From Planctomycetota bacterium (lineage in GTDB: Bacteria; Planctomycetota; B15-G4; SIAN01): a stretch of 60,081 nt of DNA. Below the pieces are notes generated by a model. That model was not told the origin of the DNA and searched no databases. It was given only the letters and a program-made list of their open reading frames with translations. How positions within the stretch are numbered: position 1 is the first letter of the stretch; every line of letters starts with the position of its first letter. Made by a program: the position numbers and the translations under genes. The DNA is taken from NCBI GenBank assembly GCA_036732755.1, contig DAINBU010000006.1:26688-86768 (forward strand). Direction: 5' to 3'. Of this stretch, positions 9,760-58,693 are shown piece after piece.

Positions 9760-9936
9760 TCAGTAGGCGCTGCCGCCTCCGCTGAACGACGTGCAGTTGG
9801 CGGTCCCGCAGTTGTTCGTCCCCTTGCCGCCCTTCTTCGGGGCGATCCGCTCCTCGAGCTTCTCGATGCGGAAGCGCTTCGGCTTCACGACGTCGTCGGA
9901 CTTCGGCGCCGGGACACGGACGTTCTTCGCGGACAT
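9760..9936 (-). CDS. Lanthipeptide precursor peptide 2 (58 aa; absent from the ORF track because it is under 60 aa)
   Basis: I translated it by hand from the minus strand: MSAKNVRVPAPKSDDVVKPKRFRIEKLEERIAPKKGGKG-TNNCGTANCTSFSGGGSAY. The ATG is the reverse complement of 9934-9936 and the TGA is the reverse complement of 9760-9762. It shares the leader and RBS with copies 1 and 3. Confidence 0.75.
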   Translation of the reverse strand: MSAKNVRVPAPKSDDVVKPKRFRIEKLEERIAPKKGGKGTNNCGTANCTSFSGGGSAY

Positions 9937-10051: not shown

Positions 10052-11119
10052 TCAGTGCGCGAGCTCCCGCGCCGACCGGAGCCACCCGGCCCACGCCGAA
10101 TGGGGCACGGCGAGCCACGGCAGGAAGCCGTTCGCCTCGTCGTGGGCGGCGAGCTCGGTCGCGGCGCGGCAGCTGAGCCCGGCGACGAAGCCGGTGTAGA
10201 GCGCCTGCAGGACGCCCGAGAGCGGGAAGATCGCGTTGCCGCACGCCCAGATCCCCGCGACGCTCGTGCGCCCCCATGCGTCGGTCACGACGTAGCCGTC
10301 GCGGCAGCGGATCTTCGTCCCGCGCACGAGACGCGCCGCGTTCTGCGGGCGGAGCTTGTAGGTGTTGTAATCGAAGACGACGGCGGCGTAGTCGGCGTGC
10401 ACGCCCGCCTCGCCCGAGTTCCAGCGCGAGCGCGCCAGCGCCTGCGTGGAGCGGCGCAGCGCCGCGGCGTGCGAGCCGTCGCCCGCGCCGAGCCGGCGGT
10501 CGAGCGCGCCCGCGCTCCCGTTCCCGCCGTCGTCGAGCGCCGTCTCGATCGCGAGCGCGCGCGTCGCGGCGCGGAAGCGCTCCGCGGTCGCCTCGACCGC
10601 CGGATGGCAGCCGGCGATCAGCAGCCGCTTGCGATGCAGCGTCCCGTCCGCAGCCAGTTGCTCGGCACGTTGAATGAACGCCTGCTGGCCCGGCAGCGTC
10701 TCCGCCATGAAGATCGCGTTGCGGAAGCGCAGGAAGCGCAGGTGGGAGAAGATGCCGCAGGCGACGACCACCGCCGGCGCGCGGAACGTCCCGCCCGCCG
10801 TGTCGACCGCGAAGCGGCCGCGCTCGCGGCGGATGCGCGTGGCGGCGACGCCGGAGCGCACCTCGACCGGCAGGTCGCGCAGCTGGTCGAGCAGCATCAC
10901 CTTGAGCTGCCCGCCCTTGATGATCCAGCCGTTGGTGAGGGTGAGCGTCCCGTACGCGGCGATCCCGCCGGGCCGCACGTGCTCCTCGAGGACGAGCACG
11001 CGGCCGAACCGGCTCGGCGGCGTCGACCACCACGGCGTCCCCTGCGACGCGGTGAGCGCGGCCATGAGGCCCGACGGCCCCGCCCCGATCACGATCACGT
11101 CGTGGCTCGACTCGCCCAT
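10052..11119 (-). CDS. FAD/NAD(P)-binding pyridine-nucleotide-disulfide oxidoreductase (thioredoxin-reductase-like flavoprotein)
   Basis: The internal start MGESSHDVIVIGAGPSGL gives an N-terminal GxGxxG dinucleotide fold. A second flavin motif is GIWACGNAIF. It starts 12 nt after the kinase stop and lies directly upstream of precursor 2 on the same strand. Confidence 0.65.
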   Translation of the reverse strand: MGESSHDVIVIGAGPSGLMAALTASQGTPWWSTPPSRFGRVLVLEEHVRPGGIAAYGTLTLTNGWIIKGGQLKVMLLDQLRDLPVEVRSGVAATRIRRERGRFAVDTAGGTFRAPAVVVACGIFSHLRFLRFRNAIFMAETLPGQQAFIQRAEQLAADGTLHRKRLLIAGCHPAVEATAERFRAATRALAIETALDDGGNGSAGALDRRLGAGDGSHAAALRRSTQALARSRWNSGEAGVHADYAAVVFDYNTYKLRPQNAARLVRGTKIRCRDGYVVTDAWGRTSVAGIWACGNAIFPLSGVLQALYTGFVAGLSCRAATELAAHDEANGFLPWLAVPHSAWAGWLRSARELAH

Positions 11120-11130
11120 CGGGGGCGCCC

Positions 11131-14100
11131 TCACTTCGGCGGGATCGCTTTCTCGACGTCGACCCACAGCTTCTTCCACGCCTCACGCTCGCCCGCGGGC
11201 AGCGCGGCGACCTCGTCGCGGACGCTCTTGAAGTCGGCGTCCTCCTTCCAATCCGCGAGCTTGTCCACCTTGCCGGCCGCCAGGCGCGCCGCGAGGTCGG
11301 CGCGCAGCCACTGCAGCGCGCGCCCACGCCACGCGGCGGCGTCCGGCGCCCCGCTCGCCGCGGCCAGGACGGCGGTGCACGCGGCGTTGTAGCGGTGCGA
11401 GCGGTCGAGGTCGTTCGCGAGCGACGCGTCGCTCGCGAGCGCCTTCTCGAAGAAGCGCGCCGCTTCGAGGAAGCGCTGCTTCCCGTAGAGGATGAGCGCG
11501 TACTCGAGGCGCTCCCCTTCATTGCCCGGCGCCGCCGCGCCTTTCACCACGTCCTCGAGGCGATCCTCGAACGCGATCTGCTTCTCGACCGTCGCGATCC
11601 TCTCGGCCGATTTCGCCCTCCAGCCCGGTTGCCTCGACCCGAGCTCGTGCCCCGTCTTCAGGTAGGGCAGCGCCTCGCGGTAGCGCTTCTGCATGTGGTA
11701 GAGCTGCCCGAGCAGGTAGTGCGCCTCCGCCATGCCGGGCTCGGCGTCGATCGCCGCTTTGCAGTGCGCCTCGCATTCCGCGTCGTTCTTCCCGTCGCCG
11801 TAGAGCGTCATGGCGAGGTTGCAGTGCGCGGGTGCGTTGCCCGGGTCGATCCGGATCGCGTCGTGATAGGCGGCGAGCACTTGCGCGAGTTCCTTCTTCT
11901 CGTCGAGCGCGCTGCCGAGCGAGTTGTAGGCGAGCGCCAGGGTGGTCGCGTCGTGCCTCTGCCGATCGTCGCGCTGCTCCACGACGACCGGCACCCGGTC
12001 CCGCAGGAGATCGATTGCGATGTGGAACTCCGCGATGCCGCGGGCGGGCTCGCCCTTGTGGCAGAAGGTGATGCCGAGGTTCAAGTGCGCCTCGGGCTTG
12101 TCAGGCTCGAGGTCGAGCGCCTTGGTCAGCGCCGTGATCGCGGCGTCGGTCCGTCTCGCGTCGTTGTTCGCGCGGCCGAGCTCGGTCCACGCGTCGGCGT
12201 AGTCGTCGCGGACCCGGACCGCCGCCTCGTACGCCTCGATCTCCCGGGCGCGGTCGCCCTTCATCACGTAGGCGCGTGCCTTCATGCGGAGCGCCTCGGC
12301 GAAGTCGGGTTTCACCGCCACCGCCGCGTCGAACGCCGCGATCGCGCGGTCCGGATCGCGCAGCGCAAGGAATGACGCGCCGATCTCGTAGTGCGAGTTG
12401 GCGAACTGGGGGTCGATCTTCAGCGCCTCCTGGAACGACGCGATCGCCTCGCGGTGCTTTCTCAACTTGGCGAGCACCTGGCCGAGGGAGTGGCGCCCCC
12501 GGGCGTAGTTCGGCTTGATCCGGATCACTTCCAGGTAGGCGTCGTGCGCCCCTGCGTAGTCGCCTTTGTCGCGCAGCGCGTTCCCGAGCCCGCCCCACAG
12601 GTCGGCGTCGTCCCGCCCGAATTCGAGCGCCGCGCGGCTCGTCTTGATCGCCTCGTCGAGCTCGCCGTGATCGGCGAGCGCGGAGGCGAGGTTGATGTAG
12701 GCGTGCTGGAAGCCGGGCTCGAGCTCGATCGCATGCTCGTACTCGCGGATCGCGTTCTCCCACTCCTTCATCGCGGTGTAGACGCAACCGAGGTTGAAGC
12801 GGGCGCGCGCGCTCTTCGGGGCGAGGCGGATCCCCTCGTTCGCCGCCGCCAGCGACTCCTCGAGCTTGCCCTGGAGCGCCAGCGCGATGGCGAGGTTGCC
12901 GTGCGCCTGGGTGAGCGTCGCCTCGAGCTCGATCGCCTTGCGGTACGCCGCGATCGCGTCGTCGAGGCGCCCCGCCTCCCTCAGCGCGAGGCCGCGGTTC
13001 ACGTGCGCACGCGCCGCGCCGGGATCGAGCTCGACGCCGCGGTCGTGCGATCGCACCGCCTCGCCGATCCGGCCGAGCGACACGAAGATCATCCCGCGCG
13101 CCGTCCAGGCCCACGCGTAGCTCGGGTCGACGGCGATGGCGCGCTCGTAGGCCACGAGCGCCTCCTCGAGCTTGCCCATCCCCGCCAGCACGTCGCCCTT
13201 CCCGCAGAAGCAGTTGGGGAGGTCGGGGTCGAGCTGGCACGCCGTCTCGTACTCGGCCAGCGCGTCCTGCGCCTTGCCCATGTCGGCGAGGACGTTCGCG
13301 CGATAGGTGTGGAAGGGGGCGCTCTTCCCGTCGAGCTCGAGCGCGCGGTCGTGCGCGACGAGCGCTGCGTCGAGGCGGCCGACGTCCTTCAGGACGCAGC
13401 CGCGGAAGGAGTACGCCTCCGCGAGGTCGGGCTTGGCCGTGCACGCGGCCTCGATCGCCGCGAGCGCGTCGTCGTACTTCTGCTCGTGCCAGAGCATGTG
13501 GCCGCGCTGCATGTGCGCCCAGGCGTCGGACGCCGCCCGAGCGATCCGGCCGTCGAGCAGCGCGATCGCGTCGTCGTAACGCTGCAGCGCGTGCAGGATC
13601 GTCACGCGCGTGCCGATCGACGCGGCGTCGTCGAAGTTGCGCTCGTGGAAGCGCAGCGCCGCCTCGAGCAGGCGCCGGCGCGCCGGCCGCGGGGGCGCGA
13701 GGTCGGCCATGCCGGAGATGCCGATCTCGACCAGGAACTTGTCGACCGCGGAGCGCGCGAGGAGGAGGTTGTCCTTGGCGCGGTCGAGCGCGGCCTGCGT
13801 CTGGCGCTGCTCCTTCCCGACGCGGAAGAGGTCGACGGCGAGCGCGACCAGCCCGAGCAGCAGCACGACGAAGGCGGCGGTCACGAAGCCCTTGTGGCGC
13901 CGGACCCACTTCGACGCGCGCGCCGCGACGGACGGCCGGCGCGCCAGGATCGGCTGGTCCTTGAGGTAGCGGCCGAGGTCCTCCGCCATCTCGAGCGCGG
14001 TCGAGTAGCGCGAGGAGGGGTCCTTCGACATCGCCTTCAGGACGATCGTCTCGAGGTCGACGGGGAGCGCGTCGTTCCACCGGCGCGGCGCGACCGGCTC

Positions 14101-15048
14101 CTTCTCCGCGATGTCGCGCATCACGGCCTGCGGGTCGTCGCCGGGGAAGGCGTGCTCGAGGGTCAGGAGCTCGTAGAGCGTCACGCCGAGCGAGTAGACG
14201 TCGGTGCGGTGGTCCATCGGCGCCCGCTTCGCGAGCGTCTGCTCCGGGCTCATGTAGCGGTACGTGCCGAGCAGCTCGCCCGTGACCGTGAGGTCGCCGT
14301 CGCGGAGCGTGCGCGCGAGCCCGAAGTCGGTGATCCAGAGCTCGCCCAGCGAATCGACCAGCAGGTTGCCCGGCTTCACGTCGCGGTGGACGACGCCGAG
14401 CTGGTGGGCGTGGTCGAGCGCCTCGGCGGCCTGCATGCCGAGCGCGACGGCCATCCGCACGTAGCCGGGGTCGCGGTTGGAGCCGTGCGACGTGGCCGGC
14501 GTCTTCGGCTCGGTGGCCGGCGCGCGCCCCTTCATTTCGCGGATCACGGCGGCGAGGCTCTGCCCCTCGACGAGCTGCATGGCGTAGTAGTGCACGCCGC
14601 GCTCGCAGCCGACCGCGAAGACCGGGACGATGTGGGGATGGTGGAGGTGCGCCGCGGCGAGCGCCTCGTTCTTGAAGCGCTGCAGCTGCTTGGGGTCGAG
14701 CACGGCCGCGAATGGCAGCACCTTGAGCGCGACGCGCCGCCCGAGCGAGACCTGCTCCGCCTCGTAGACGACTGCCATGCCGCCGCGGCCGACCTCGCGC
14801 ACCAGCCGGAAGTCGCCGAGGAGCTGGCGCTCGGCGAGCTCGCCCCCCTCCTTCGGAGCGTGCGGCATCTCGCGCGTCGCCCGGTGGATGAACTCGAGCC
14901 CGTCGAGGGCGGCGGCGAGCTCGGCGGCGCACTGCGGATGCTGCGCGAGCAGCTCTTCGCGCGGCGGCGCGCCACCCTGCTCGAGCGCGCGCAGGTAGGC
15001 GTCGAGGATCGCGCCGACGTTGCCGGCGCCCGTGGCGGTATCGCTCAT
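11131..15048 (-). CDS. Ser/Thr protein kinase with a long TPR-repeat C-terminal region (1305 aa)
   Basis: The real start is MSDTATGAGNVGAILDAY at 15048; the upstream 500 aa of the 1823-aa ORF is shadow. Hanks kinase motifs are present: GRGGMAVVYEA..ALKVL, HRDVKPGNLLVD, DFGLART, YMSPEQ. A TM segment (FVTAAFVVLLLGLVALAV) is followed by about 20 TPR repeats. The start overlaps the ECF sigma stop by ATGA. Confidence 0.8.
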   Translation of the reverse strand: MSDTATGAGNVGAILDAYLRALEQGGAPPREELLAQHPQCAAELAAALDGLEFIHRATREMPHAPKEGGELAERQLLGDFRLVREVGRGGMAVVYEAEQVSLGRRVALKVLPFAAVLDPKQLQRFKNEALAAAHLHHPHIVPVFAVGCERGVHYYAMQLVEGQSLAAVIREMKGRAPATEPKTPATSHGSNRDPGYVRMAVALGMQAAEALDHAHQLGVVHRDVKPGNLLVDSLGELWITDFGLARTLRDGDLTVTGELLGTYRYMSPEQTLAKRAPMDHRTDVYSLGVTLYELLTLEHAFPGDDPQAVMRDIAEKEPVAPRRWNDALPVDLETIVLKAMSKDPSSRYSTALEMAEDLGRYLKDQPILARRPSVAARASKWVRRHKGFVTAAFVVLLLGLVALAVDLFRVGKEQRQTQAALDRAKDNLLLARSAVDKFLVEIGISGMADLAPPRPARRRLLEAALRFHERNFDDAASIGTRVTILHALQRYDDAIALLDGRIARAASDAWAHMQRGHMLWHEQKYDDALAAIEAACTAKPDLAEAYSFRGCVLKDVGRLDAALVAHDRALELDGKSAPFHTYRANVLADMGKAQDALAEYETACQLDPDLPNCFCGKGDVLAGMGKLEEALVAYERAIAVDPSYAWAWTARGMIFVSLGRIGEAVRSHDRGVELDPGAARAHVNRGLALREAGRLDDAIAAYRKAIELEATLTQAHGNLAIALALQGKLEESLAAANEGIRLAPKSARARFNLGCVYTAMKEWENAIREYEHAIELEPGFQHAYINLASALADHGELDEAIKTSRAALEFGRDDADLWGGLGNALRDKGDYAGAHDAYLEVIRIKPNYARGRHSLGQVLAKLRKHREAIASFQEALKIDPQFANSHYEIGASFLALRDPDRAIAAFDAAVAVKPDFAEALRMKARAYVMKGDRAREIEAYEAAVRVRDDYADAWTELGRANNDARRTDAAITALTKALDLEPDKPEAHLNLGITFCHKGEPARGIAEFHIAIDLLRDRVPVVVEQRDDRQRHDATTLALAYNSLGSALDEKKELAQVLAAYHDAIRIDPGNAPAHCNLAMTLYGDGKNDAECEAHCKAAIDAEPGMAEAHYLLGQLYHMQKRYREALPYLKTGHELGSRQPGWRAKSAERIATVEKQIAFEDRLEDVVKGAAAPGNEGERLEYALILYGKQRFLEAARFFEKALASDASLANDLDRSHRYNAACTAVLAAASGAPDAAAWRGRALQWLRADLAARLAAGKVDKLADWKEDADFKSVRDEVAALPAGEREAWKKLWVDVEKAIPPK

Positions 15049-15695
15049 GGCATCCGCTCCTTCAGGATCCTGCCGACGCGCACGAGCGCCCGCGTCCACA
15101 GCATGCGCGCCGCGTCCGGCGAGCGGCCGGTGAGCGCCGCGATCTCCTTCCACTCGAGCTCGCGCAGGTTGCGGAGCACCAGCACCTCGCGGTCCTCGGG
15201 AGCGAGGTCGGCGAGCGCATCGGCGAGGATCACGCCGCGCTCGCGCCGCTGGGCCGACTGGCTCGGCGACCGTCCCTGCGCCTCCACCAGCTCGCGCAGC
15301 ATCTGCGACGAGCGATCGGCCTGCGACTCGAGCGACCGCTCGCGCTCGACGCGGCGCCCCTGCAGCGAGTAGCGCCGCCGCAGGTCGGCGAGGTTGTTCA
15401 CGAGGATCTGCCGGATCCACGTGATCCACTCCTGCTCGGTCGTGCCGCGGAACTTCGGGAAGTTCTGGTGCGCCTTGAGCAGCGTCTCCTGCACCAGGTC
15501 GGAGGCGTCGGCCTTGCCCTGGACGTTCCGATCGAGGCTCGTGACGGCGATGAGCCGCAGGTAGTTGCGGTACGCCTTGAGCAGTTCGCCGAGCGCCTCG
15601 GAACCGCCCGCGCGCGCGCGCCGGATGCACTCGGAGACGCTCGCCGACGAGTCGTCGATCACGGCCGATCCGTCCGGGCGTCGGGATCGTGGCAT
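15045..15695 (-). CDS. ECF (sigma-70 family, group IV) RNA polymerase sigma factor
   Basis: The internal start MPRSRRPDG lies at 15695. Region 2 (SDLVQETLLKAHQNFPKFRG) and region 4 (ILADALADLAPEDREVLVLRNLRELEWKEIAALTG) are recognisable. The stop is ATGA-coupled to the kinase gene. Confidence 0.7.
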   Translation of the reverse strand: MPRSRRPDGSAVIDDSSASVSECIRRARAGGSEALGELLKAYRNYLRLIAVTSLDRNVQGKADASDLVQETLLKAHQNFPKFRGTTEQEWITWIRQILVNNLADLRRRYSLQGRRVERERSLESQADRSSQMLRELVEAQGRSPSQSAQRRERGVILADALADLAPEDREVLVLRNLRELEWKEIAALTGRSPDAARMLWTRALVRVGRILKERMP

Positions 15696-15840: not shown

Positions 15841-16794
15841 ATGCGCCGGCGCGATGGCGTCCTTCTGCCACGACCCGGAGGCGGAACTCCGGGCGTCCGG
15901 GGGGTGACCTTGCAAGCGGACGTCGTCGCGCGGACGAAGCTGCCCCGCCTCGCCGACCGGCTCGCGCTCGGGAGCGGCGGGCTGCGCGTCAGCCCCTGCT
16001 GCGTCGGGATGGTCGAGGACCCGGCGACGATCGCGGCCGCCTTCGACCTCGGCGTGAACTTCTTCTTCGTCAGCTCCGACATGCACTGGCCGCTCTACGA
16101 GGCGGCGCGGCGCGGCCTCGAGCGGCTCCTCGCGCGCGGCGGCGCCGTCCGCGACGAGATCGTCGTCGCCGGCGTCTGCTACCCGACGCAGCCCGAGTTC
16201 TGCAGCTTCCCGTTCCGCGAGCTGGTCGACGCGGTGCCGGGGCTGGGGCGGCTCGACGTGCTGCTCGCGGGCGGCGCCTACGGCTCCGAGGTGGGCACGC
16301 GGCTCCCCGTCTACGAGCGCCATCGCGAGGAGCGCTTCCTCGGCAACCGCGCGATCGGCGTCACCTTCCACGACCGTGTGGCGGCGGCGACGGCGCTGCA
16401 GCGCGGCGGGCTCGACATCGCCTTCGTCCGCTACAACGCCGACCACGCCGGCGCGCGCGACGACCTCTTCCCGCACGTGCCCGAGCGGCCGCGGCCGCTC
16501 CTCTTCAACTTCAAGAGCACGTCGGGCTTCGTGCCGCCCGTCCGCATGGCGGAGATCGGACTCGTCGCGCCCGACTACTGGCAGCCGGAGGTCACCGACC
16601 ACTACCGGTTCGCCTTCACGCGCCCGCAGCTCGACGGCCTGCTCGTCTCGCCGCGCACGCCGCGCGAGGTCGAGGGGATCGCCGCGGCGCTCGCGCGCGG
16701 CCCGCTGACCGACGAGGAGGAGACCTACCTGATCGACGTCGCCGCGGTGGCCCGCGGCGCTGCCCGAGTCCGACCCGAAGGAGAAACGACATGA
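15841..16794 (+). CDS. Oxidoreductase-like protein (possible aldo/keto-reductase-like TIM barrel), translationally coupled to precursor 3
   Basis: A 317-aa ORF divergent from the ECF sigma gene. The alternative GTG at 15906 is also possible. The family assignment is weak (LGSGGLRVSPCCVGMV, FFFVSSDMHWPLYE). Its stop overlaps the precursor-3 ATG (ATGA at 16791-16794). Confidence 0.4.
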   Translation: MRRRDGVLLPRPGGGTPGVRGVTLQADVVARTKLPRLADRLALGSGGLRVSPCCVGMVEDPATIAAAFDLGVNFFFVSSDMHWPLYEAARRGLERLLARGGAVRDEIVVAGVCYPTQPEFCSFPFRELVDAVPGLGRLDVLLAGGAYGSEVGTRLPVYERHREERFLGNRAIGVTFHDRVAAATALQRGGLDIAFVRYNADHAGARDDLFPHVPERPRPLLFNFKSTSGFVPPVRMAEIGLVAPDYWQPEVTDHYRFAFTRPQLDGLLVSPRTPREVEGIAAALARGPLTDEEETYLIDVAAVARGAARVRPEGETT

Positions 16795-20000: not shown

Positions 20001-20247
20001 GCGCCGGTCGGAGCGGAGCGCGGCCGCGCGCGCGGCGCTGCAGCGCGCGGCGGCGGACGGGAGCCTCGCCGCGCCGCTCGAGGAGATCGCGGCGGCGCTC
20101 CTCCACATGCACTGCAACCGGCTGCTGCGCGCGGCGGCGCGCACGCACGAGCTCGTGCTCTACGACTTCCTCCACCGCCACTACAAGGGACGCGTCGCGC
20201 GCGCCGCGAGCGAGCGGCGCAACGCGTCCGACGTCTACGTCGCGTAG
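17050..20247 (+). CDS. lanB: LanB-type lanthipeptide dehydratase, full length (N-terminal glutamylation domain plus C-terminal SpaB_C elimination domain)
   Basis: The N-terminal hallmark is GFFVLRAPALPF followed by LWRYLARMAGRATPFGLFG. The C-terminal elimination-domain signature is WLTVKLYGG...RWHFVRYADPHGHLRLRF...LDTYEREIERYGG. The in-frame TTG at 17050 is preceded by GGGAGGAGAGAGAGTC. The alternative ATG at 16930 would overlap precursor 3. Confidence 0.8.
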   Translation: MSSPPPTAFAPSGFFVLRAPALPFAAFAGGESGEAPREKLRRLVERPDVREALFVASPDLDARLETWRNAPDSEDGARIELSLWRYLARMAGRATPFGLFGSCSLGAIGATTHLVLGDRMRRHTRLDMDYVVLLADALARDSALRPRLRFRPNSSLYRVGERWRYHEVRREAKGWAHRRCALEAADYLDLVLARARGGATIGELVATLRERDADATEAETAEYVDALIDQQVLVSELVPAITGDEPIHDWIARLRATEGGAAAAERLEAVRDELARFDAGGPGVAPPRYRALAAELAALPAEVDVARTFQVDLSRPAPDAALGSAVVEELLRGVELLRRIAPRRNDSLANFRRAFGERFGDTPVTREVPLSEALDDETGVGDGGTDEVVSAAPILDGLELAAAEAPASFGARERHLLERVTALLQRGATEWSLSDDDVEKLAVDDPPPLPDAFAAHARIEAWSAEAVDRGEFRLLLQGASGPSGARLLGRFGHADPELADAVAGHLRAEEALRPDALFAEIVHLPEGRVGNILARPTHRRHEIPYLGRSGLPESNQIELGDLLVSVRGERVVLRSARHGCEVLPRLTTAHNYTAQPGVYRFLCGLQEQGVAGALAWSWGALANSAFLPRVTCGRLVLARAQWRVAREETVRLLEACASGRAAALAAWRAERRLPRWVCLTEGDHELPIDLDEPALVATLLAQMRSDATLTELFPAPDRLCVAGPEGRHVHEILVPFVRCAGAEAPRRVRPSPPMSNAAPAAAAARRFVPGSEWLTVKLYGGALAVDDLVRTTVGPLAVEWAAEGVAQRWHFVRYADPHGHLRLRFEGEARRLEQELLPRLRRAVAPLLDAGRLWKLQLDTYEREIERYGGPEGIVHCEELFHRDSEAIVELLRDAPTEGDGDRRWRLALLGMDRLLDDVGLDLETKRRTLLRARDAFHKEFKASDAVARQIGAKWRVESAAVARLLAPDGDEEDAWSPARAAFGRRSERSAAARAALQRAAADGSLAAPLEEIAAALLHMHCNRLLRAAARTHELVLYDFLHRHYKGRVARAASERRNASDVYVA

Positions 20248-21779
20248 CGCCCCGGCGAGAGGATCGAGCGCGGATCGCAGGCGAGCTTCAGGCGGCGGCG
20301 GAACGCCGCGTCGTCGCCGTTCGCCGCCGGCAGGAGCCGCATCGAGTTGACGCCGAGGCGATACGGGAAGAAGCCGCGGCGCGCGAGCCGGGCGTGCAGC
20401 CGGCGCGCGCAAGCGAGCGCGCGGCGGTCGTCGCGCGCGACGGCGCGGTCGAAGAAGAGCGGCACGACGAGGTGGGCGCTGCGCCCGTCGAGCGCCGTGA
20501 TCGTGATCATCGGCTCGAAGCCGCTCTCGGCGGTCGTCCGCTCGACGATGCGCACCGCCGCGGCGACGGCGCGCCCCGTCATCGGGACGACCGGGCTGCA
20601 CCAGATGGCGCCGCAGCGGTCGCGGTCGGGGTCGGGCTCGGCGGGCGGCGCGCTGCGCTTGCGCCAGTAGGTCGCGACCACGTCGCGCGAGACGCCGGGA
20701 CGGTGGAGCTCGGCCCACCCGTCGCCGCCGCGGCCGCGCAACTGCGCCTCGCGCGTGAAGACGACGCGGCCGCACGAGGCGGCGAGCGCGTCGCGCAGCA
20801 GCCGGCGCTCGGGCGCGCGGTGGCGCTCCGTCGCGTACTCGAGCGTCCCGGAGAGGGCCCAGGAGAAGGGCTTCGGCAGCAGCGCGCGCACCAGCGCGCG
20901 CGGCAGCACGCCATCGCCCTTCGTGATCGACCGCGGGTAGCGCGTCGCGGTGCTGAGCACGCGGTAGTCGTTGGTGAGCTTCACCGGGTTGCGCAGCACG
21001 CCGCGCAGCAGCAGCGGCCGCAGCGCGTCGATCGCGCGCGGCAGGTCGCGCGCGCTCCCGATCGTCGCGGCGATCCGGTCGCCGAGCTCCGGGATCGGCG
21101 AGAGCCAGAGGGTGAGGCGCGTCACCACGCCGAAGCTCGACTGGCTGAAGAGGCCGTCGACCCACGGGCCGACCCCCCAGCGATGGAGCGGCGCCGCCGT
21201 GGCGCCCGGCAGGCGCGCGAAGCCGGTGCGCACGCATTCGCCGGTCGGCAGCACGACCTCGAGCCCGCAGACGCCGTTGAAGCGGTCGCCGAGCGGGCCG
21301 TGGCCGAGCCCGCGCTCGAGGGCGTTGGCGAGCGGGCTCGTGTCGGGCGTGCTGCCGGTCGGGTTGGCGTGGAGCCGCGAGCGGCGCCGCCGCAGGAAGG
21401 CGTGGAGCTGGCGGAAGGTGACGCCCGGCTCGAGCGTGACGTAGCCGAGGCGCTCGTCGAACTCGACGATCCGGGACATCCGGGCGAGTTCCATCACGAC
21501 CGCGCCGTCGCGCACCGGCACGCGCGAGCCGTAGCCCCAGTTCTTGCCGCAGCTCACCGGATGGATCGGGACGCGGAAGCGGCCGGCGATCCGCAGGCAC
21601 GCCTGCACTTCGAGGCGCGACGCAGGGCGGAGCAGCGCCGGGATGCGCTGCGCGGTCTGGAAGGTCGCGCGCTCCGCCGAGCGCCGCGCCGCCGCCGCGG
21701 TCACGACGTGGGCGTCGCCGAGCGCCCGCCTCCAGAGGCGGAGCGCCGCCTCGAGCCGGGCGCGACGGGAGTGTTTCAC
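20235..21779 (-). CDS. FAD-linked oxidase (PCMH-type FAD-binding domain)
   Basis: The lower part of the 1389-aa minus ORF shows the FAD_binding_4 motif VPIHPVSCGKNWGYGSRVP..GAVVMELARMSRIV. The in-frame GTG start is at 21779 (VKHSRRARLE); no in-frame ATG is available. It is convergent with lanB and overlaps it by 13 nt. Confidence 0.65.
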   Translation of the reverse strand: MKHSRRARLEAALRLWRRALGDAHVVTAAAARRSAERATFQTAQRIPALLRPASRLEVQACLRIAGRFRVPIHPVSCGKNWGYGSRVPVRDGAVVMELARMSRIVEFDERLGYVTLEPGVTFRQLHAFLRRRRSRLHANPTGSTPDTSPLANALERGLGHGPLGDRFNGVCGLEVVLPTGECVRTGFARLPGATAAPLHRWGVGPWVDGLFSQSSFGVVTRLTLWLSPIPELGDRIAATIGSARDLPRAIDALRPLLLRGVLRNPVKLTNDYRVLSTATRYPRSITKGDGVLPRALVRALLPKPFSWALSGTLEYATERHRAPERRLLRDALAASCGRVVFTREAQLRGRGGDGWAELHRPGVSRDVVATYWRKRSAPPAEPDPDRDRCGAIWCSPVVPMTGRAVAAAVRIVERTTAESGFEPMITITALDGRSAHLVVPLFFDRAVARDDRRALACARRLHARLARRGFFPYRLGVNSMRLLPAANGDDAAFRRRLKLACDPRSILSPGRYAT

Positions 21780-22007: not shown

Positions 22008-24389
22008 GTGCCCGTCGCCGCCCCGCCGCTCCCGCCCCGCCGCAGCGACCTGCGGGTCGAGCCGTTCGGCGAGAAGGGCGAGCACGTGGTGAAGGACCCG
22101 CGCTCGGGCGACTTCTTCCTGCTCGGGCAGCGCGAGCACTTCCTCCTGCTCCAGCTCGACGGGGAGCACAGCGCGACGGCGGTGCGCTCCGCCTACGAGC
22201 GGCGCTTCGAGGAGCCGCTGACCCCGGGCGACCTCGACGACTTCCTCGTGACCGCGGGCGAGCAGGGGATGCTCGCGACGTCGGCGCCCCCCGCCGCGCC
22301 GGCGAAGCAGAGCCTCCTCTTCTTCCGCAAGTCGCTCTTCGATCCCGACCGCCTCTTCACGCGCATCGAGCCGAAGCTGCGCTGGATCTGGACGAAGACG
22401 TTCCTCGTCCTCTCCGCGGTCGCGATCGCGGGCGGGGGAATGCTCCTCTTCGCGAACCGGGACGACCTGGTGGCGAGCCTGCGCGACTCGCTGCGCTGGG
22501 AGTCGCTCCTGGTCGGCTGGTTCGTGGTCGCGCTGCTCGGCGTGCTGCACGAGTGCTCGCACGGACTCACGTGCAAGCACTTCGGCGGCGCCGTCCACGA
22601 GATCGGCGCGCTCTTCCTCTACTTCACGCCGTGCTTCTACTGCAACGTCTCCGACGCGTGGCTCTTCAAGGAGAAGCGCAAGCGCGTCTGGGTCATGCTC
22701 GCCGGCGGCCACTGCGACCTGCTGGTCTGGGCGCTCGCGGTGGTCCTGTGGCGCGTCGCCGAGCCGGGCACGTTCATGAGCCGCGTCTCCTTCCTCGTGG
22801 TCGGGATCTCCGGCCTCGACACGCTCTCCAACTTCAACCCGCTCCTCAAGCTGGACGGCTACTACCTGCTCTCCGACTGGAAGGAGCTGCCGAACCTGCG
22901 GCAGCGCGCGCTCGAGCGCGCGGGAGCGCACGCGCGGCGCGTCCTGTGGGGCGCGGCCCCACCCGTCGCCGACACGAGCGGGCGCTTCCTCACGGCCTTC
23001 GGGCTGCTCACCTGGCTCTTCTCCGCGACCTTCCTGGTCGCGGCCGTCACGATCGGCGCGCGCTGGCTCCACGAGGTCGGCGGCGCCGCCGGCTACGTCG
23101 CGGCGGTCCTGCTCGCGCTGCCGGCCGTGCTCGCGTCGATCCGAGGCATTTCCGGTGGCGAGGTCACCCGCATGATCACCAAACGACGAATCCGGGCGTT
23201 CTGCTGGCTCCTCGCCCTCGTCGGCCTGGGCGCCGCGAGCGTCTTCTGGCGCGTCGACGAGTACTCCGGCGGGAGCTTCACGGTCCGCCCCGCCGTCCAC
23301 GCGGAGGTGCGCGCCCCCGTCGCCGGCTTCCTGCGCGCCGTCGCGGCGCAGGAGGGCGATCGCGTCGGCGCCGGCGACCTCGTCGCGCGCCTCGAGGTGC
23401 CCGACCTCGACTGCCGGATCGAGCAGAAGCGGGCCGAGCTGCGCGAGGCGAAGGCGCAGCTCTCGCTGCTCGAGACCGGGACGCGCCCCGAGGAGATCGT
23501 CGAGCAGCGCGGCCGCGTCGCGCGCGCCGGGCGCTGGCGCGACCTCGCGGCCGACGAGCTCACGCGGATGCGGAACGCCTTGACCGAGGAGCTCGCCGCC
23601 TTCGAACAGCGCCTCGCCGAGGCGCAGGTGCAGGTCGAGGCCTCCGACCTGCGCCACGACCGGATCGCGAAGCTCGCGGACGACGGCCTCGTGAGCCGCG
23701 AGGAGCTCGAGAGCGCCGACCAGGCGCGGCGGATCGCGCGGGCACGCCGCTCGGTCGTGCAGGCGGAGAAGCGCGCGCGCGAGTCGAGCGGGACGATCGA
23801 GGGCGAGGTCGAGCTGGCGCGCCGCGAGCGCGAGCTCGGCGACGAGACGTCGCGGCTCGCGCTGCTCGAGGCGGGCGCGCGGCCCGAGGAGCTCGCGGCG
23901 CAGCGGGCGCGCGTCGAGCGGCTCGGCGTCGAGCAGGACCACCTCGAGGCGCTGCAGCGGCGGCTCGAGGTCGCGAGCCCGGTCGCCGGCGCGATCGTGA
24001 CGCCGCGCCTGCGCGAGCGCGTCGGCCAGTACCTGCGCGAAGGCGACCCGATCTGCGTGGTCGAGGAGCACTCCGCGCCGGTGGCGGAGATCGCGCTGGA
24101 CGAGGAGAAGCTGCGCGGCATCGAGCTCGGGCAGCGCGTCGCGTTCAAGATCCGGGCGCTGCCGTTCACGACGCTCGAGGGGCGCGTCGTGCGCCTGGCA
24201 AGCTGCGCAGCGCGGGAAGACGGGCGCGCGCAGGGGACGGTGCTGGTGCACTGCTCGATCGACGGCGCGCCGCCGCTGCTGCGCACCGCGACCAGCGGCT
24301 ACGCGCGCATCTACACGGGGGAGCGACCCGTGGGAGCGGTCGTGCTCGACGCCGCGCTGCGGCTGTTCCGGACGGAGTTCTGGTGGTAG
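22008..24389 (+). CDS. Fusion protein: PqqD-like RiPP recognition element, site-2-protease-like M50 zinc metalloprotease and HlyD-family membrane-fusion domain
   Basis: The N-terminus is LRVEPFGEKGEHVVKDPRSGDFFLLGQREHFLLLQLDGEHSATAVRSAYERRF (PqqD/RRE-like). Then come TM helices with HECSHGLTCKHFGG (HExxH) and further polytopic helices. The C-terminal roughly 380 aa carries a HlyD-like coiled coil (LEVPDLDCRIEQKRAELREAKAQL...) and a beta-barrel. The start is GTG at 22008. Confidence 0.7.
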   Translation: MPVAAPPLPPRRSDLRVEPFGEKGEHVVKDPRSGDFFLLGQREHFLLLQLDGEHSATAVRSAYERRFEEPLTPGDLDDFLVTAGEQGMLATSAPPAAPAKQSLLFFRKSLFDPDRLFTRIEPKLRWIWTKTFLVLSAVAIAGGGMLLFANRDDLVASLRDSLRWESLLVGWFVVALLGVLHECSHGLTCKHFGGAVHEIGALFLYFTPCFYCNVSDAWLFKEKRKRVWVMLAGGHCDLLVWALAVVLWRVAEPGTFMSRVSFLVVGISGLDTLSNFNPLLKLDGYYLLSDWKELPNLRQRALERAGAHARRVLWGAAPPVADTSGRFLTAFGLLTWLFSATFLVAAVTIGARWLHEVGGAAGYVAAVLLALPAVLASIRGISGGEVTRMITKRRIRAFCWLLALVGLGAASVFWRVDEYSGGSFTVRPAVHAEVRAPVAGFLRAVAAQEGDRVGAGDLVARLEVPDLDCRIEQKRAELREAKAQLSLLETGTRPEEIVEQRGRVARAGRWRDLAADELTRMRNALTEELAAFEQRLAEAQVQVEASDLRHDRIAKLADDGLVSREELESADQARRIARARRSVVQAEKRARESSGTIEGEVELARRERELGDETSRLALLEAGARPEELAAQRARVERLGVEQDHLEALQRRLEVASPVAGAIVTPRLRERVGQYLREGDPICVVEEHSAPVAEIALDEEKLRGIELGQRVAFKIRALPFTTLEGRVVRLASCAAREDGRAQGTVLVHCSIDGAPPLLRTATSGYARIYTGERPVGAVVLDAALRLFRTEFWW

Positions 24390-24425: not shown

Positions 24426-27314
24426 TCAGCGCGCCTTGTGCATCACCTCGACCGCCTCCGGCCTTCCGTCGCCGTGGCAGATCTCGCACGACTCGAAGCC
24501 GTTCGGGCTCGTGTTGACGTCGATGTGGGCCTGCGCGGCGTTCGAGTCGTGGCACGCGCCGCACGCGGCCCGCCACGCGCGCGTCGGCGGCGTCTGGCCG
24601 GCGGGGTGGTTGCGTTCGGCGATCTCGAAGAAGGCGGTGTTGTCGGCGCCGTGGCAGGCGACGCAGGTCGCCGCCCCTGCTGGGAGCGCGGGAAAGTCGA
24701 CTTCGGAGTAGCTCGAAGTCCCGAAGTTGTCGGGCCACGCGGTCGAGCCGAAGCCGACGACCTCGTAGGTGTCGGCGTTGGCGAGGCTCGCCCCCATGTG
24801 GATCTTGTGCAGCAGCGTCCGGAAGTCGACGGTCAGCCCGGTCGTGGGCGGCGCGTTGGCGGCCACGTAGGGCGGGCGGTCCTCGGATCCCGCGGTGCCG
24901 TGGCAGAGGAGGCACGTCTCGTAGCCGCGCCGGCCGCCGCCGTGGAAGTAGACGTCGTCGTGGCAGGCGTAGCAGGTCGCCGCGCCCGCGGTCTTGTCGT
25001 AGGGCGCGATCGTCGTGGCCGACCCGGCCAGGAAGGCGGCGGTGGCCGGCGGCGACGTGCCGTTGTAGGTCTGCGTCTCGCCCTCCCGGTTGACGACGAG
25101 CGGCGGCGCGCCCCACAGGCCGACCGTGTAGGTGCCGTCGGGCAGCGCGAGCCCGGTCCACTTGCCCCAGCTCGCGTCGAGGTCGGGCGAGCCGTTGATC
25201 GCGGCCGGGAAGGTCGACGGCATCACGAAGAAGGAGGTGTAGGTGCAGACGATCGCGTCGCCCGACTGGAAGCTGGCGGGCGCGACCTCGGTGATCGTGC
25301 CGTTCGCGAGGTCGAGGACGTAGTCGGTGTTGAGCGTCTTGGTGGTGAGCGTGACCTCCTTGACCGACACTCCGGCCGGGTGGGAGAGGCGCGGGCCGAC
25401 CGCGTAGCTGGTGCTCGCCGTCGAGCCGAACCACAGGCGGTTCCCGTCGACCTGCTGGACGCGCAGGTACTCCTCCGCGCCGAGGACGCCGTCGTCGACC
25501 ACGACGTAGTCGTTGTGCGCGAAGCCGGTGGCGTCGACGACCTCGATGAAGTTCTGCGGCGGGCCGACGGGCGCGGAGAGCGTCGAGTTCCCGCCCGAGG
25601 TCGCGGTGCGCTCGAACACGGTCGTGGTCGAGCCGGTGTAGATCGGGTGGCGCGACGTCGCGAAGGCCTCGATCCCGCCGTTGTCGGCAGCCTTCCTTAC
25701 GAACTCGAGCGGCAGCATTTCGCTCAGGTCGACCGTGAAGGGCGGCGCGCCGGTCAGCATCGCCGTCGGGATCGACGTGTTGAGGAGCATGTTGGGGTTG
25801 GTGGTCGGGCCGGAGAGGGCGGCGTTCAGAGAGGTCACGGTCGAGGGCGGGACGTCGGCGCCGCTGTCGTCGGTGAGCGAGAAGGTGAGCGCGATCTGCT
25901 CGCCGGGGTCGATCGTCCCGTCGGCATTGTTCGTGCCCGACTCGGCGATGGCGAGCCCGGTGACGTGGAAGCCGGGGTTGACCGCCGGGTCCACCAGAGG
26001 ATGGAGGTGCCCGCTGCGGACCGCGAGCGACCCGCCCGAAGCGGGGTGGCAGAAGATGCAGCTCGAGTCGGACAGCTGCGCCCCCATCGTCTGGTTGTTC
26101 TTCTTGTAGCTCTGCGTCCAGATGACGTCGTCGTGGCACGAGCCGCAGGCGCGTCGCGACGGCTGCGCGTAGGCGAGGTCGCCGTTCGCCGGCGGCGGCA
26201 GCGGGCCGGCTCCGTCGGGATCGCCGTGGCACTTGTCGCACGACACGACGCCCTCGCGCACGATTTCGTCGCGTCCCTGCTCCTCCGGAGTGAGCAGCGT
26301 GTAGCCCGTGTTCCTCGGCATCGGGATGTTGAGGCTCGGCCAGACCGGGAAGTGGATCGTCGAGAAGTCGGAGAGGTTGCCGTTGCCCGCGAGCTCGTAG
26401 GACACCGGCGGCACCGAGTAGTCGCGCGTGCCGTCGCCAAGGACTCCGATGCCGTTCACGGAGGGCAGGTGCGCGGCGTTGTGGATCTTGTGGATCATCA
26501 CCTTGAATTCGATGGTCGCGCCCGGCGTGCCGCCCCCCACTCCCGAGTCGTTCTCGTCCTCCGCGCCGGCCGTGTGGCAGAGGATGCAGAGTTTCACGTC
26601 CTTGCGCAGCCCGCCGTGGAATTCCAGGTCGGAGTGGCAGCTGGCGCAGTTCGCCTGCGTGACGATTTCGCGCGGCTCGATCGTCGTCGCGTTGTTCACG
26701 AGGACGTCGAACTCGGCGTTGCCGGCGCTGTTGAAGCCCTCCCCCTCGACCGTGTAGTCCCAGCGCGCGGAGATCCCGATCGTGTAGGTCCCGGCGAGCA
26801 GCGTCTGTCCCTGCAGCTCGCCGTCGTCGGAGCCGAACGAGGTCGTGTCGTTGATCGGCGGCGGATAGGTCGCCGGGAGCCCGGTCGCGAAGGTGTAGCT
26901 GAAGGAGCCGTCGGCGTTGGCGACCGCGCGCGTCGGCACGTCGGTCACCTCGGGGATCACCTGCTGATAGTTGAAGGTCGGCCCCGAGAGCATGATCCGG
27001 CCGCGCGACATCTCGGCGAGCGTCCAGCTCGAGCCGTCGTCCTTGGTGAGCGTGAACTTCACCGTCGGCGTGTCGCCCGCCGCGAACGAGCCGTCGGAGT
27101 TGCCCGCGCCGGTCACCGCGAGGATGGTGACGTTCACGCCGGGCGAGTCCTCGGTCCGCAGGAGATCGGTCGGCGTCGTCGCGTCGCCGGGCGAGCCGGG
27201 CGGACCGGGCGGTCCCGGGTCGCCGTCGTCGCCCGTGCAGGCGGCGACGAGGGAGGCGGCGACGAGCGCGGCGGCGAAGCGCGACGCCGCGCGAACGACT
27301 GCGTGGAAGCTCAT
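24426..27314 (-). CDS. Decaheme c-type cytochrome lipoprotein (OmcA/MtrC-like outer-surface multihaem)
   Basis: The start MSFHAVVRAASRFAAALVAASLVAAC carries a lipobox and is preceded by a GGAGG RBS. It has ten CxxCH motifs (CASCH, CILCH, CDKCH, CGSCH, CIFCH, CYACH, CLLCH, CVACH, CGACH, CEICH) in a 962-aa Thr/Gly-rich protein. Confidence 0.8.
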   Translation of the reverse strand: MSFHAVVRAASRFAAALVAASLVAACTGDDGDPGPPGPPGSPGDATTPTDLLRTEDSPGVNVTILAVTGAGNSDGSFAAGDTPTVKFTLTKDDGSSWTLAEMSRGRIMLSGPTFNYQQVIPEVTDVPTRAVANADGSFSYTFATGLPATYPPPINDTTSFGSDDGELQGQTLLAGTYTIGISARWDYTVEGEGFNSAGNAEFDVLVNNATTIEPREIVTQANCASCHSDLEFHGGLRKDVKLCILCHTAGAEDENDSGVGGGTPGATIEFKVMIHKIHNAAHLPSVNGIGVLGDGTRDYSVPPVSYELAGNGNLSDFSTIHFPVWPSLNIPMPRNTGYTLLTPEEQGRDEIVREGVVSCDKCHGDPDGAGPLPPPANGDLAYAQPSRRACGSCHDDVIWTQSYKKNNQTMGAQLSDSSCIFCHPASGGSLAVRSGHLHPLVDPAVNPGFHVTGLAIAESGTNNADGTIDPGEQIALTFSLTDDSGADVPPSTVTSLNAALSGPTTNPNMLLNTSIPTAMLTGAPPFTVDLSEMLPLEFVRKAADNGGIEAFATSRHPIYTGSTTTVFERTATSGGNSTLSAPVGPPQNFIEVVDATGFAHNDYVVVDDGVLGAEEYLRVQQVDGNRLWFGSTASTSYAVGPRLSHPAGVSVKEVTLTTKTLNTDYVLDLANGTITEVAPASFQSGDAIVCTYTSFFVMPSTFPAAINGSPDLDASWGKWTGLALPDGTYTVGLWGAPPLVVNREGETQTYNGTSPPATAAFLAGSATTIAPYDKTAGAATCYACHDDVYFHGGGRRGYETCLLCHGTAGSEDRPPYVAANAPPTTGLTVDFRTLLHKIHMGASLANADTYEVVGFGSTAWPDNFGTSSYSEVDFPALPAGAATCVACHGADNTAFFEIAERNHPAGQTPPTRAWRAACGACHDSNAAQAHIDVNTSPNGFESCEICHGDGRPEAVEVMHKAR

Positions 27315-27364
27315 CACGACCCTCCTCCTTCGTTGCGCACGACGGTCACCTCCTCGGTCACGGA

Positions 27365-28396
27365 TCACTTATGGCATGCGGTGCACTGATCACCTTTGTC
27401 GGGATGGGGCAACGGCGCACCCTGTCCGTGGCACTGGCGGCAGTTCATCGCCGGCGAATGTCCCGGCGGCATCGGTGCCGCGAGCGCGTGGCTCGGCGCG
27501 CCGCGGTGGCAGACGATGCAGCCCGTCCCTCCGCCGAGCGGGAAGTGGCACGTGATGCAGTGGCGGTCCGACGGCGACCCCCAGCCCGCGCTGTGGCTGA
27601 GCGGCGCAGTCTGCGAGTGGCAGCGCTCGCACGCGTCGGCCTGGTGGCAGGTGGAGCAGCGGTCGCGGTTGACCGCGACCGCGACGCCGTGGCCGCGCCG
27701 CCGCCAGTAGTTCGTGTGGTCGTCGGGCAGCTCGGTCTGGTGGCACGTGGTGCAGGCGCTCCGCGCATGGCACATCGTGCAGCTCGCCGCCTCGGGGCTG
27801 CCGGCGCGCTGGACGGTGCGGCCGTGCTCGCGCTTCCAGTCGGTGGCGTGGCTCGGCGGCGCGCGGTCGGCGCGGATCTCCTTGTGACACACCGCGCAGT
27901 CGTTGCCCCACGCCGCTCCCCGCTCCGCGTTGCGCGCGTGGCAGGCGGTGCACTTCGCCATGGTCACGTGCACGTCGGCTGTGACCGCGTCGCTGCTCGC
28001 CACGCTGCCGTGGCACTCGGAGCACTCGATGTGCTCGGTGCTCGCGTGGAGGAGGTGCGAGAAGACGATCTCCGACGAGAGCTTCGTCAGGCTCGGCGCC
28101 TTGAGGACGTCGTTCTCGAAGAAGGCGGCCGCCTGCTTCTCCGGCGGCTTGTCGCGGTCGATCTCCTTGTGGCAGAGGCGGCACTGCTGGATCGAGGGCA
28201 TGCCGGGCGCGTCGGCGGTGAGCGCGTCGCGGTGGCAGCTCGCGCACTCGAGGCCGTCGTCCTCGCCGTGCCGCGCGTGGGGGAACGCGAGCCGCTCCGG
28301 CTCGCCCGACGAGCCGCCCATCCAGAGGCAGCCGCCGACGAGCGGCACCGCCACGAAGAGCGCGGCGCGGACGAGCCGTCGTCTCAGAAGGTCCAT
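27365..28396 (-). CDS. Periplasmic multiheme c-type cytochrome (about 13 CxxCH in 343 aa)
   Basis: The start MDLLRRRLVRAALFVAVPLVGGC lies at 28396; the 1108-aa ORF upstream of it is shadow. The haem density is very high: CASCH, CRLCH, CSECH, CTACH, CAVCH, CTMCH, CTTCH, CSTCH, CERCH, CITCH, CIVCH, CRQCH, CTACH. Confidence 0.75.
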   Translation of the reverse strand: MDLLRRRLVRAALFVAVPLVGGCLWMGGSSGEPERLAFPHARHGEDDGLECASCHRDALTADAPGMPSIQQCRLCHKEIDRDKPPEKQAAAFFENDVLKAPSLTKLSSEIVFSHLLHASTEHIECSECHGSVASSDAVTADVHVTMAKCTACHARNAERGAAWGNDCAVCHKEIRADRAPPSHATDWKREHGRTVQRAGSPEAASCTMCHARSACTTCHQTELPDDHTNYWRRRGHGVAVAVNRDRCSTCHQADACERCHSQTAPLSHSAGWGSPSDRHCITCHFPLGGGTGCIVCHRGAPSHALAAPMPPGHSPAMNCRQCHGQGAPLPHPDKGDQCTACHK

Positions 28397-29823: not shown

Positions 29824-29993
29824 CTCGGCCCCTTCTCCTCGGCGAAGGAGCGCAGCGTAGCACACCCCTGGCCTGCGTCGATCTCGTGGAGCGAAGCCGC
29901 CTCGCGCTCGAGCCCGCGGTCGTGCGCGACGCGGCGCCGCGCGCCGGAAGTCGCCGCCGGATCGCCCGCGAATCCACGACGGGACGCGCGCGT

Positions 29994-40540: not shown

Positions 40541-40802
40541 GGTGTTGCTCCCTCTTCCGGCGCGCGGAACTCCCCGGCTGCGCGCCCGTTGCGGCACGGC
40601 GTAACGAGAGGAGCGGCGCTCGGCAAGTCGAAGTTCGGACCTGGCGCGGAGATCGAGCGTGATCAGGTCCGCGTACGGCGGCGGTTCGAGGGCGGACGCC
40701 TCGAATTGGACGGGTCGGCCGGCCTCCCGTTGCGTTTCGCCCGCCGATTCCGCTCCTCCTGCTTGCCGCCCGTTCCATGGGTCCGTGAGCAGGAGTTCGT
40801 CC

Positions 40803-41813: not shown

Positions 41814-41859
41814 GACGTCCGTCCCCGTCCGCTTTTCGCATTGCTCGACGGAGAACGAC

Positions 41860-52596: not shown

Positions 52597-52703
52597 TCCC
52601 TACGTTCGCCCGACCGGCGTTCGCCCCGTCGCCGTCTGCGGGGGCGCGTCGAGCCGGCGGGGATGTCGGATCATAGGCGGCCGCGCTTACGATCCGCTGC
52701 TCC

Positions 52704-56549: not shown

Positions 56550-56573
56550 CGTCGCCCTCGCCAGAAAGTGGCC

Positions 56574-58554: not shown

Positions 58555-58693
58555 GGCGACGGCACTCTTTTCCAGCGCTTCGCCCGGCGCCTGGGTCCGA
58601 TTCCTCGGGGGGGTGCTATCTTTCCGCGCCCGACCGGTCCGATGACGGACCCGATCGGCACGTCGCACGTCGGGTCGCAACCGGGACCGTCGA

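Follow-up and report, generated by a model that had tools for sequence, protein, structure and literature searches.

A fusion of a RiPP recognition element, a site-2-protease-like domain and a HlyD adaptor, probably a leader peptidase for LEERIAP-type peptides, encoded beside planctomycete lanthipeptide genes

Within a 60,081-nt stretch of DNA from a member of the Planctomycetota (hereafter the window, numbered from its first letter as position 1) lies a gene predicted to fuse, in a single polypeptide, a PqqD-like recognition element for peptides that are synthesized by the ribosome and modified post-translationally (RiPP recognition element, RRE), an M50 metalloprotease of the site-2 protease (S2P) type and a HlyD adaptor. 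This architecture was borne out by Pfam and NCBIfam profiles, scans of homologues and structure models. A protein cluster from public metagenomes (P0001) matches the protein at 100% identity, and the gene has a third-position GC of 0.97 in a window with a G+C of 67-78%. The gene and its parts are the following:

22008..24389, + strand: RRE-S2P/M50-HlyD fusion gene, 793 aa, GTG start, uninterrupted translation
22047..22277, + strand: RRE or PqqD-like winged-helix domain, residues ~14-90, predicted to be cytoplasmic
22350..23252, + strand: site-2-protease (M50)-like membrane domain, residues ~115-415, ~7 transmembrane (TM) helices
22548..22562, + strand: HExxH zinc-binding and catalytic motif, H181 E182 C S H185, invariant in 30 homologues
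22836..22859, + strand: NPLLKLDG motif, N277-G284, second S2P signature, third zinc ligand D283
23265..24386, + strand: periplasmic adaptor of the HlyD or membrane fusion protein (MFP) type, residues ~420-793; a long alpha-hairpin is flanked by split lipoyl and barrel domains
23661..23696, + strand: RLS-type hairpin-tip motif R552-x3-L556-x6-S563 in the adaptor hairpin

From the N-terminus the protein thus consists of the RRE, the S2P/M50-like protease with ~7 TM segments and a C-terminal HlyD adaptor of ~375 aa, close to the ~380 aa first estimated. The NCBIfam model NF041824, 'daptide biosynthesis intramembrane metalloprotease', aligns end to end with residues 14-374 (E 3.5e-63, 214 bits). 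We aligned 30 full-length homologues, 46-75% identical to the fusion protein; when these were scanned singly with Pfam, PqqD was found in 25 and Peptidase_M50 in 24 (both at E<=0.01), and HlyD domains in all 30.

The reading of the N-terminal ~90 residues as an RRE (the segment VKDPRSGDFF...EQGML corresponds to residues 27-89) held up both in these homologues and in the predicted fold. An AlphaFold2 model of residues 1-112 shows the order beta1-beta2-beta3-alpha1-alpha2-alpha3, with strands at 16-20, 25-29 and 36-39 and helices at 41-49, 56-67 and 73-85, and a predicted local confidence (pLDDT) of ~90 over residues 11-90. Its best matches in the PDB, found by Foldseek, were the RREs of lasso-peptide biosynthesis TbiB1 (5v1u; probability 1.0, template modelling score 0.72) and TfuB1 (6jx3), followed by the RRE-bearing proteins SuiB, CteB, ThcOx, TigE, SkfB and TglI. 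By sequence profile TfuB1 (E 0.099) and TbiB1 were among a few weak PDB matches (E 0.1-0.4). In the fusion protein itself PF05402 covers its whole model (1-67 of 67) over residues 1-111 with 12.0 bits (threshold 23.4) and E 0.28; the best PqqD E-value among the homologues is 2.9e-15.

The membrane domain carries both signatures of site-2 proteases (family M50), an HExxH motif and an NPxxxLDG-type motif. The former, at residues 181-185 within LHECSHGL, lies at the end of a TM segment predicted by hydropathy at ~164-184, and in the latter P278, L279, L282, D283 and G284 are invariant in the 30-homologue alignment. Comparison of structure models with solved S2Ps confirmed the fold, so that, together with the invariant motifs, the proposed intramembrane HExxH protease was upheld. 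Fold comparison alone succeeded here, a search of this region against the PDB by sequence alone having found nothing. Since PF02163 scores 13.9 bits against a threshold of 27.2, the domain is, as judged by its sequence profile, best described as a divergent branch and not a core Pfam member. The ~7 TM segments that hydropathy places between the RRE and HlyD parts would make the RRE cytoplasmic and the adaptor periplasmic.

Both HlyD_3 (45.5 bits, threshold 22.2) and HlyD_D23 (41.8 bits, threshold 30) pass in the adaptor, in which Biotin_lipoyl was also matched, and residues ~395-740 match the NCBIfam models RND_mfp, EmrA and type_I_hlyD, in agreement with a HlyD adaptor at the C-terminus. In canonical adaptors the RLS tip is the contact with TolC-type outer-membrane channels. 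Its residues are kept in most homologues: R552 in 28 of the 30, L556 in 24 and S563 (as Ser or Thr) in 21.

The full-length architecture, mostly ~800 aa long, comprises more than 2,600 clusters at 90% identity, and a search with residues 1-420 retrieves, at E<=1e-30, the representatives of 1,155 clusters formed at 50% identity. At least 597 loci of the family occur in species-representative genomes. The hosts (Planctomycetota, Acidobacteriota, Verrucomicrobiota, Gemmatimonadota, Rokubacteria, Eisenbacteria, Betaproteobacteria and others) are almost all diderm, and the homologues are labelled only in terms such as 'HlyD family adaptor' or 'putative peptide zinc metalloprotease'. Proteins of the daptide MpaP type, which lack HlyD, come from Actinomycetota and Bacillota. 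Two further open reading frames (ORFs) of the window, at 50224-52599 (791 aa) and 54348-56699 (783 aa), were considered as paralogues and rejected on reading their translations.

The window locus in which the fusion gene stands is a split class I lanthipeptide cluster, called split because lanC lies ~8 kb from lanB, beyond the regulatory genes. Its genes, delimited by frame-specific GC and profile scans, are listed below together with the flanking cytochrome gene:

8143..9399, - strand: LanC-like cyclase, 418 aa; the syntenic counterpart in locus L084 has PF05147
9407..9586, - strand: precursor lanA3, 59 aa; leader ...RKRFLIEKLEERIAP(33) / core AKGGKGTQNCGSTYFFCGPSGHCHGY
9760..9936, - strand: precursor lanA2, 58 aa; leader ...PKRFRIEKLEERIAP(33) / core KKGGKGTNNCGTANCTSFSGGGSAY
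10052..11119, - strand: flavin adenine dinucleotide (FAD)-dependent oxidoreductase (DAO/Pyr_redox_2), by profile scan
11131..15048, - strand: Ser/Thr kinase with tetratricopeptide repeats (TPR), ~1,300 aa; its start overlaps the stop of the sigma-factor gene
15045..15695, - strand: extracytoplasmic-function (ECF) sigma factor, embedded in the cluster
15904..16794, + strand: conserved unknown protein, 296 aa, accompanying lanB in the window and in loci L001, L005 and L084
16791..16982, + strand: precursor lanA1, 63 aa; leader ...RKRFRIEKLEERIAP(36) / core KKGGKGTNNCSGSAGTSSGTFSCGSIY; ribosome-binding site GAAGGAGAA
17050..20247, + strand: full-length LanB dehydratase (Lant_dehydr_N + Lant_dehydr_C), by profile scan
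20235..21779, - strand: FAD_binding_4 oxidase, divergent from the fusion gene
24426..27368, - strand: multihaem cytochrome, convergent with the fusion gene

As originally described, the fusion gene is divergent from the FAD oxidase gene, which abuts lanB. The three precursor genes were found by searching for the KKGGKG box, and each is preceded by a strong ribosome-binding site. Their products share a common leader, ...KRF(R/L)IEKLEERIAP(K/A)KGGKG, followed by a core rich in Cys, Ser, Thr and Gly that ends in Tyr; leader positions -12 to -9 (F-x-I-E) presumably resemble the FNLD box of class I lanthipeptide leaders. A scan of the 60-kb window for the signature of ATP-binding cassette (ABC) transporters found none, and no subtilisin-like LanP was present among the window neighbours scanned. 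The cluster adjoins a group of multihaem c-type cytochromes (MtrC/MtrF-like and NapC/NirT-like) at 24426-31469, the first of which is likewise adjacent in L084.

Between lanC and the cytochrome gene, both included, L084 keeps full synteny with the window. The L001 homologue, 75% identical, lies with six leader-bearing precursors, lanB, an FAD_binding_4 oxidase and an Asn-synthase-like gene, and the contig of P0013 has a similar context; the Asn-synthase-like gene (~725 aa; L001 338-1555 and upstream) and a conserved unknown protein of 405-419 aa found in these two clusters are both absent from the window. At L002 (48% identical) three peptides with RFQIEKLEERIAP stand beside a sulfotransferase and a methyltransferase, without lanB. 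Elsewhere the flanking genes include a tryptophan-halogenase-like flavoenzyme (L017), a methyltransferase (L036) or unrelated genes. Given this variability, the constant unit would be the precursor or precursors plus the fusion protein. The lanthipeptide role first proposed is supported for the window, with its three LanA precursors, and is too narrow for the family, since lanB occurs in only 4 of ~85 contexts examined.

Across 84 loci, clustering of neighbouring ORFs returned only two recurrent families, a kinase/TPR-type group and a 352-aa ORF, neither identifiable as a pump or outer-membrane factor. The ~352-aa ORF is conserved, has no Pfam match and stands immediately downstream of the fusion gene, overlapping its 3' end, in 11 loci (L040, L050, L054, L055, L064, L067, L071, L072 and L077-L079) from Rokubacteria, Gemmatimonadota, Verrucomicrobiota and Acidobacteriota; its product may be a further part of the machinery. 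Of the 84 loci, 37 have kinase/TPR-like ORFs. Their distances being inconsistent, the Ser/Thr kinase was rejected as a constant partner and treated as phylum background with a possible regulatory link in some clusters. At L002 an ECF sigma-kinase pair, with WD40 in place of TPR, precedes the peptides.

What accompanies the fusion gene across phyla is the leader. When the ORFs of all loci, taken in six frames, were searched with a hidden Markov model of the leader motif, small ORFs on the same strand emerged just upstream of it. Counts were made on 80 species-level loci from at least 8 phyla, of which 69 were informative with a strict motif and 74 with a relaxed one. A strict-motif peptide lies within 3 kb upstream on the same strand at 47 of 69 loci; with the relaxed motif (Lys allowed at -4, and downstream positions included) the count is 53 of 74, or 56 of 74 if L001, L005 and L058, whose peptides are farther off or on the opposite strand, are added. 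The density of the motif is 2.52 per 10 kb near the fusion gene vs 0.118 elsewhere, and the motif next to it is LE(E/Q)(R/K)IAP regardless of the tailoring enzymes.

Alignment of 106 unique peptides showed that positions -13 to -1 are conserved and that conservation collapses at +1. L-7 is present in 102 of the 106, E-6, R-4 and P-1 being fixed by the search pattern. The leaders are short (median 22 aa). The cores, whose median length is 35 aa (range 8-230), abound in Gly, Ser, Asn and Pro, and just 37 of the 106 cores have Cys. The precursors belong to no Pfam or NCBIfam family and are annotated as 'hypothetical'. Some leader-bearing substrates are long, highly repetitive cationic polypeptides with 70-230 residues past the IAP site, built for example of ~30 copies of GGSGGKS or of GSSKK, GSGKD or GSHKG repeats (L015 8600-9370, from Adhaeretor mobilis HG15A2, and L014, L021, L024 and L013). 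Kinship of the leader with LEPR-XLL, an N-terminal domain of planctomycetes, was rejected as unsupported after an NCBIfam search with 11 leader-bearing peptides gave no match at E up to 10.

At three of the 18 loci without a strict-motif match, all from Acidobacteriota (L048, L068 and L082), the precursor turned out to be placed downstream of the fusion gene instead of upstream and to carry Lys at -4. There is one short precursor at each, ~520-630 nt away, with the motifs IEELEQKTAPS, IEELENKVAPS and VEELEQKIAPS, respectively, among housekeeping genes (queA, clpB, cold-shock). For loci at which no leader was recognised, such as L025, L034, L043, L051, L061, L066, L071, L075 and L076, the substrates may be encoded elsewhere or may carry a diverged leader.

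Taken together, we consider it likely that the fusion protein is a dedicated leader peptidase, and probably also a trans-envelope export adaptor, for peptides with (R/K)(F/L)x(I/L/V)E(E/K)LE(E/Q)(R/K)IAP leaders. In the window its substrates would be the three LanA precursors of the class I cluster, with its lanB, lanC and flavin oxidoreductases. The cytoplasmic RRE, whose fold is clear from the model, would bind the leader of the co-encoded precursors; the fusion gene and the conserved leader co-occur. The peptide modified by LanB and LanC would then be presented to the membrane zinc site (HExxH plus D283) and cut C-terminal to the invariant Pro, releasing a core that begins with KKGGKG. Finally, the periplasmic HlyD/MFP hairpin with its RLS tip would dock on a TolC-like channel and carry the peptide out of the double-membraned cell. 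The presence of the adaptor in diderms and its absence from the monoderm MpaP-type proteins suggest that it solves the crossing of the periplasm and outer membrane.

The position of the cut is suggested by the daptide peptidase MpaP, which cleaves directly after the conserved Pro of ELExMEAP (PMC10028931). Aligned from this Pro, ELExMEAP and xLEERIAP have L(-7), E(-6), A(-2) and P(-1) in common. Because MpaP cuts after Pro and conservation collapses at +1, we infer cleavage at ...RIAP/KKGGKG, that is, at P36/K37 in LanA1 and at P33/K34 or P33/A34 in LanA2 and LanA3. The leader-protease role proposed at the outset is thereby supported, with the site shifted from within the KKGGKG box to the bond immediately before it. 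The further proposal that the protein stands in for the missing LanP and LanT found support in the three precursors with a common leader, the lack of an ABC signature in the window and the leader motif beside homologues across phyla. On sequence grounds it would be a functional substitute for these proteins and not a family member, being a zinc S2P joined to an adaptor instead of an S8 protease or an ABC exporter.

Several observations weigh against this interpretation. The energy source for export is missing, as no inner-membrane pump or outer-membrane factor is linked in the 84 loci (resistance-nodulation-division (RND) and major facilitator superfamily (MFS) pumps and outer-membrane factors having been assessed via neighbour-ORF clustering only) and an ABC ATPase signature was found in just 1 of them. 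S2P active sites normally face the cytoplasm, so that cleavage alone leaves translocation unexplained. The NF041824 score of 214 falls below the equivalog cut-off of 300 bits, and in the fusion protein itself PqqD (12 bits) and Peptidase_M50 (13.9 bits) stay below their Pfam thresholds. No recognisable leader peptide lies nearby in 18-21 of 74 loci. Moreover, LanB has its own leader-binding domain, so the conservation of the leader in the window cluster may partly reflect recognition by LanB. Leader binding, cleavage site and export are, each of them, inferred.

In a rival reading the protein acts as leader peptidase only, and its HlyD part either calls in a generic pump encoded elsewhere (MacB/ABC, MFS or RND, with TolC) or merely oligomerises the protease. 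This is a sub-variant of the proposed model and not its opposite, and we regard it as a possibility of modest weight. HlyD-type adaptors are normally paired with an energised inner-membrane transporter, none of which is fused here, and the kept RLS tip fits a standard tripartite assembly; a dedicated pump, however, is usually co-encoded, as are the ABC transporters of daptide clusters, and neither the window nor 83 of the 84 loci have a linked transporter gene. The hand-over of the product to an efflux pump, part of the original prediction, was for the same reason left as conjecture. Also of modest weight is the suggestion that the RRE-S2P-HlyD protein forms a self-contained, ATPase-independent processing and secretion machine of diderms, presumably oligomeric as other adaptors are, that would recognise a universal LEERIAP leader on the cytoplasmic side, cleave it in the membrane and lead the core along the tube of its own adaptor to a channel in the outer membrane. 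Its substrates would be broad, from lanthipeptides and unmodified peptides rich in Asn, Gly and Pro to polypeptides of 100-230 residues of the (GGSGGKS)n or (GSSKK)n type.

S2P enzymes classically act in the activation of ECF sigma factors, and an ECF sigma-kinase pair is present in the window, L084 and L002, with kinase/TPR-like ORFs at the 37 loci counted above. The fusion protein might therefore be a regulatory S2P that cuts an anti-sigma factor or signalling protein of this pair, the small peptides being signals or unrelated. We find this very improbable: the distances of the kinase and sigma genes vary and most loci lack them, whereas the tightly linked same-strand neighbours are leader-bearing peptides; the N-terminal domain is an RRE, a fold that binds peptide leaders; and among characterised homologues the closest one cleaves the leader of a RiPP. 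Least credible of all is an adaptor for immunity or efflux, protecting the cell against its own lanthipeptide with the M50-like domain as an inactive anchor, a role echoed in the labels 'multidrug efflux pump subunit' and 'HlyD family efflux transporter periplasmic adaptor', which are automatic and cover the C-terminal half only, while the invariance of HExxH and of the Asp of NPxxxLDG in 30 homologues, the most distant of them 46% identical, speaks for an active protease, and the RRE is conserved as well.

Two other parts of the window drew attention. The ORF at 58646-59803 (+), in a stretch of lower GC, contains CNLKCEFC (CX3CX2C), a motif typical of radical S-adenosylmethionine enzymes. Translations from 40605-43752 (+) show an ORF with the zinc-metalloprotease motif HEFGHMVGFAHEH, followed by an ORF with a caspase-like SGHG...DCCHSGG.

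If the fusion protein is indeed a leader peptidase and export adaptor, the missing LanP/LanT step of the window lanthipeptide cluster is filled. The LEERIAP-type leader with the RRE-S2P-HlyD cassette would then mark loci for peptide natural products or secreted peptides, whatever their chemistry, in phyla where RiPPs have hardly been explored, and the after-Pro rule would give a testable prediction of the core peptide at every such locus. A protease-adaptor fusion without a linked pump also raises the mechanistic question of how the peptide passes two membranes. Should the self-contained machine prove real, it would be a route of secretion not recognised before, and would offer genome mining a handle on peptide loci by the thousand in Planctomycetota, Acidobacteriota, Verrucomicrobiota, Gemmatimonadota and others. 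We found no description of the three-domain fusion or of the LEERIAP leader in the literature, a weak negative, most subscription journals lying outside the search.

The nearest known system is that of the daptides. Like MpaP/DapP (NF041824; PMC10028931), the fusion protein joins an N-terminal RRE to an S2P-like HExxH membrane domain, with homology over residues 14-374 and similar cognate leaders. Unlike MpaP, it adds the ~375-aa HlyD adaptor, its hosts are diderm and not Actinomycetota or Bacillota, and its gene stands in a context without a linked ABC transporter. None of what marks a daptide locus (an aminotransferase, an alcohol dehydrogenase, a DUF-RRE, precursors with a terminal Thr) was found among the window neighbours, where the precursors end in Tyr. 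The protein is thus a relative of MpaP and not a member of that family, falling outside the equivalog on both score and context. An RRE fused to an M50/HlyD adaptor had been called a non-standard lanthipeptide component; the RRE-S2P fusion is already known from daptides (PMC10028931), and it is the HlyD fusion and the leader family that are unusual.

EpeP/YydH (NF058609; weak match, E 1.5e-7) is likewise an intramembrane M50 metalloprotease, and EpeP has been proposed to combine cleavage and export of a RiPP (PMC10885120); it differs in its lack of RRE and HlyD, its monoderm host and its leader. TglG/TmoG, from pearlin and small-LanB pathways, are membrane M50 proteases encoded beside a LanB-like gene. 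They are, however, carboxypeptidases that free a C-terminal modified residue and have no RRE/HlyD fusion, and unlike the small LanB of pearlin pathways the window LanB is full-length and comes with LanC.

In its adaptor the fusion protein resembles the canonical MFPs (HlyD, EmrA, MacA, AcrA), with lipoyl and beta-barrel domains, a long alpha-hairpin and an RLS tip, whereas their single TM segment or lipid anchor is replaced by the RRE and the 7-TM protease. The overall logic resembles that of NHLP/Nif11 and LanT/CvaAB systems, in which a single conserved leader type serves many cores and tailoring enzymes and leader removal is coupled to export via an adaptor in diderms; the HlyD domain also gives a weak match to TIGR03794, NHLM_micro_HlyD (E 1e-7). 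In these systems the cut, at GG, is made by a C39 cysteine protease domain that is part of an ABC transporter driven by ATP, whereas the fusion protein joins a zinc S2P to the adaptor, has an RRE for recognition and carries no ATPase.

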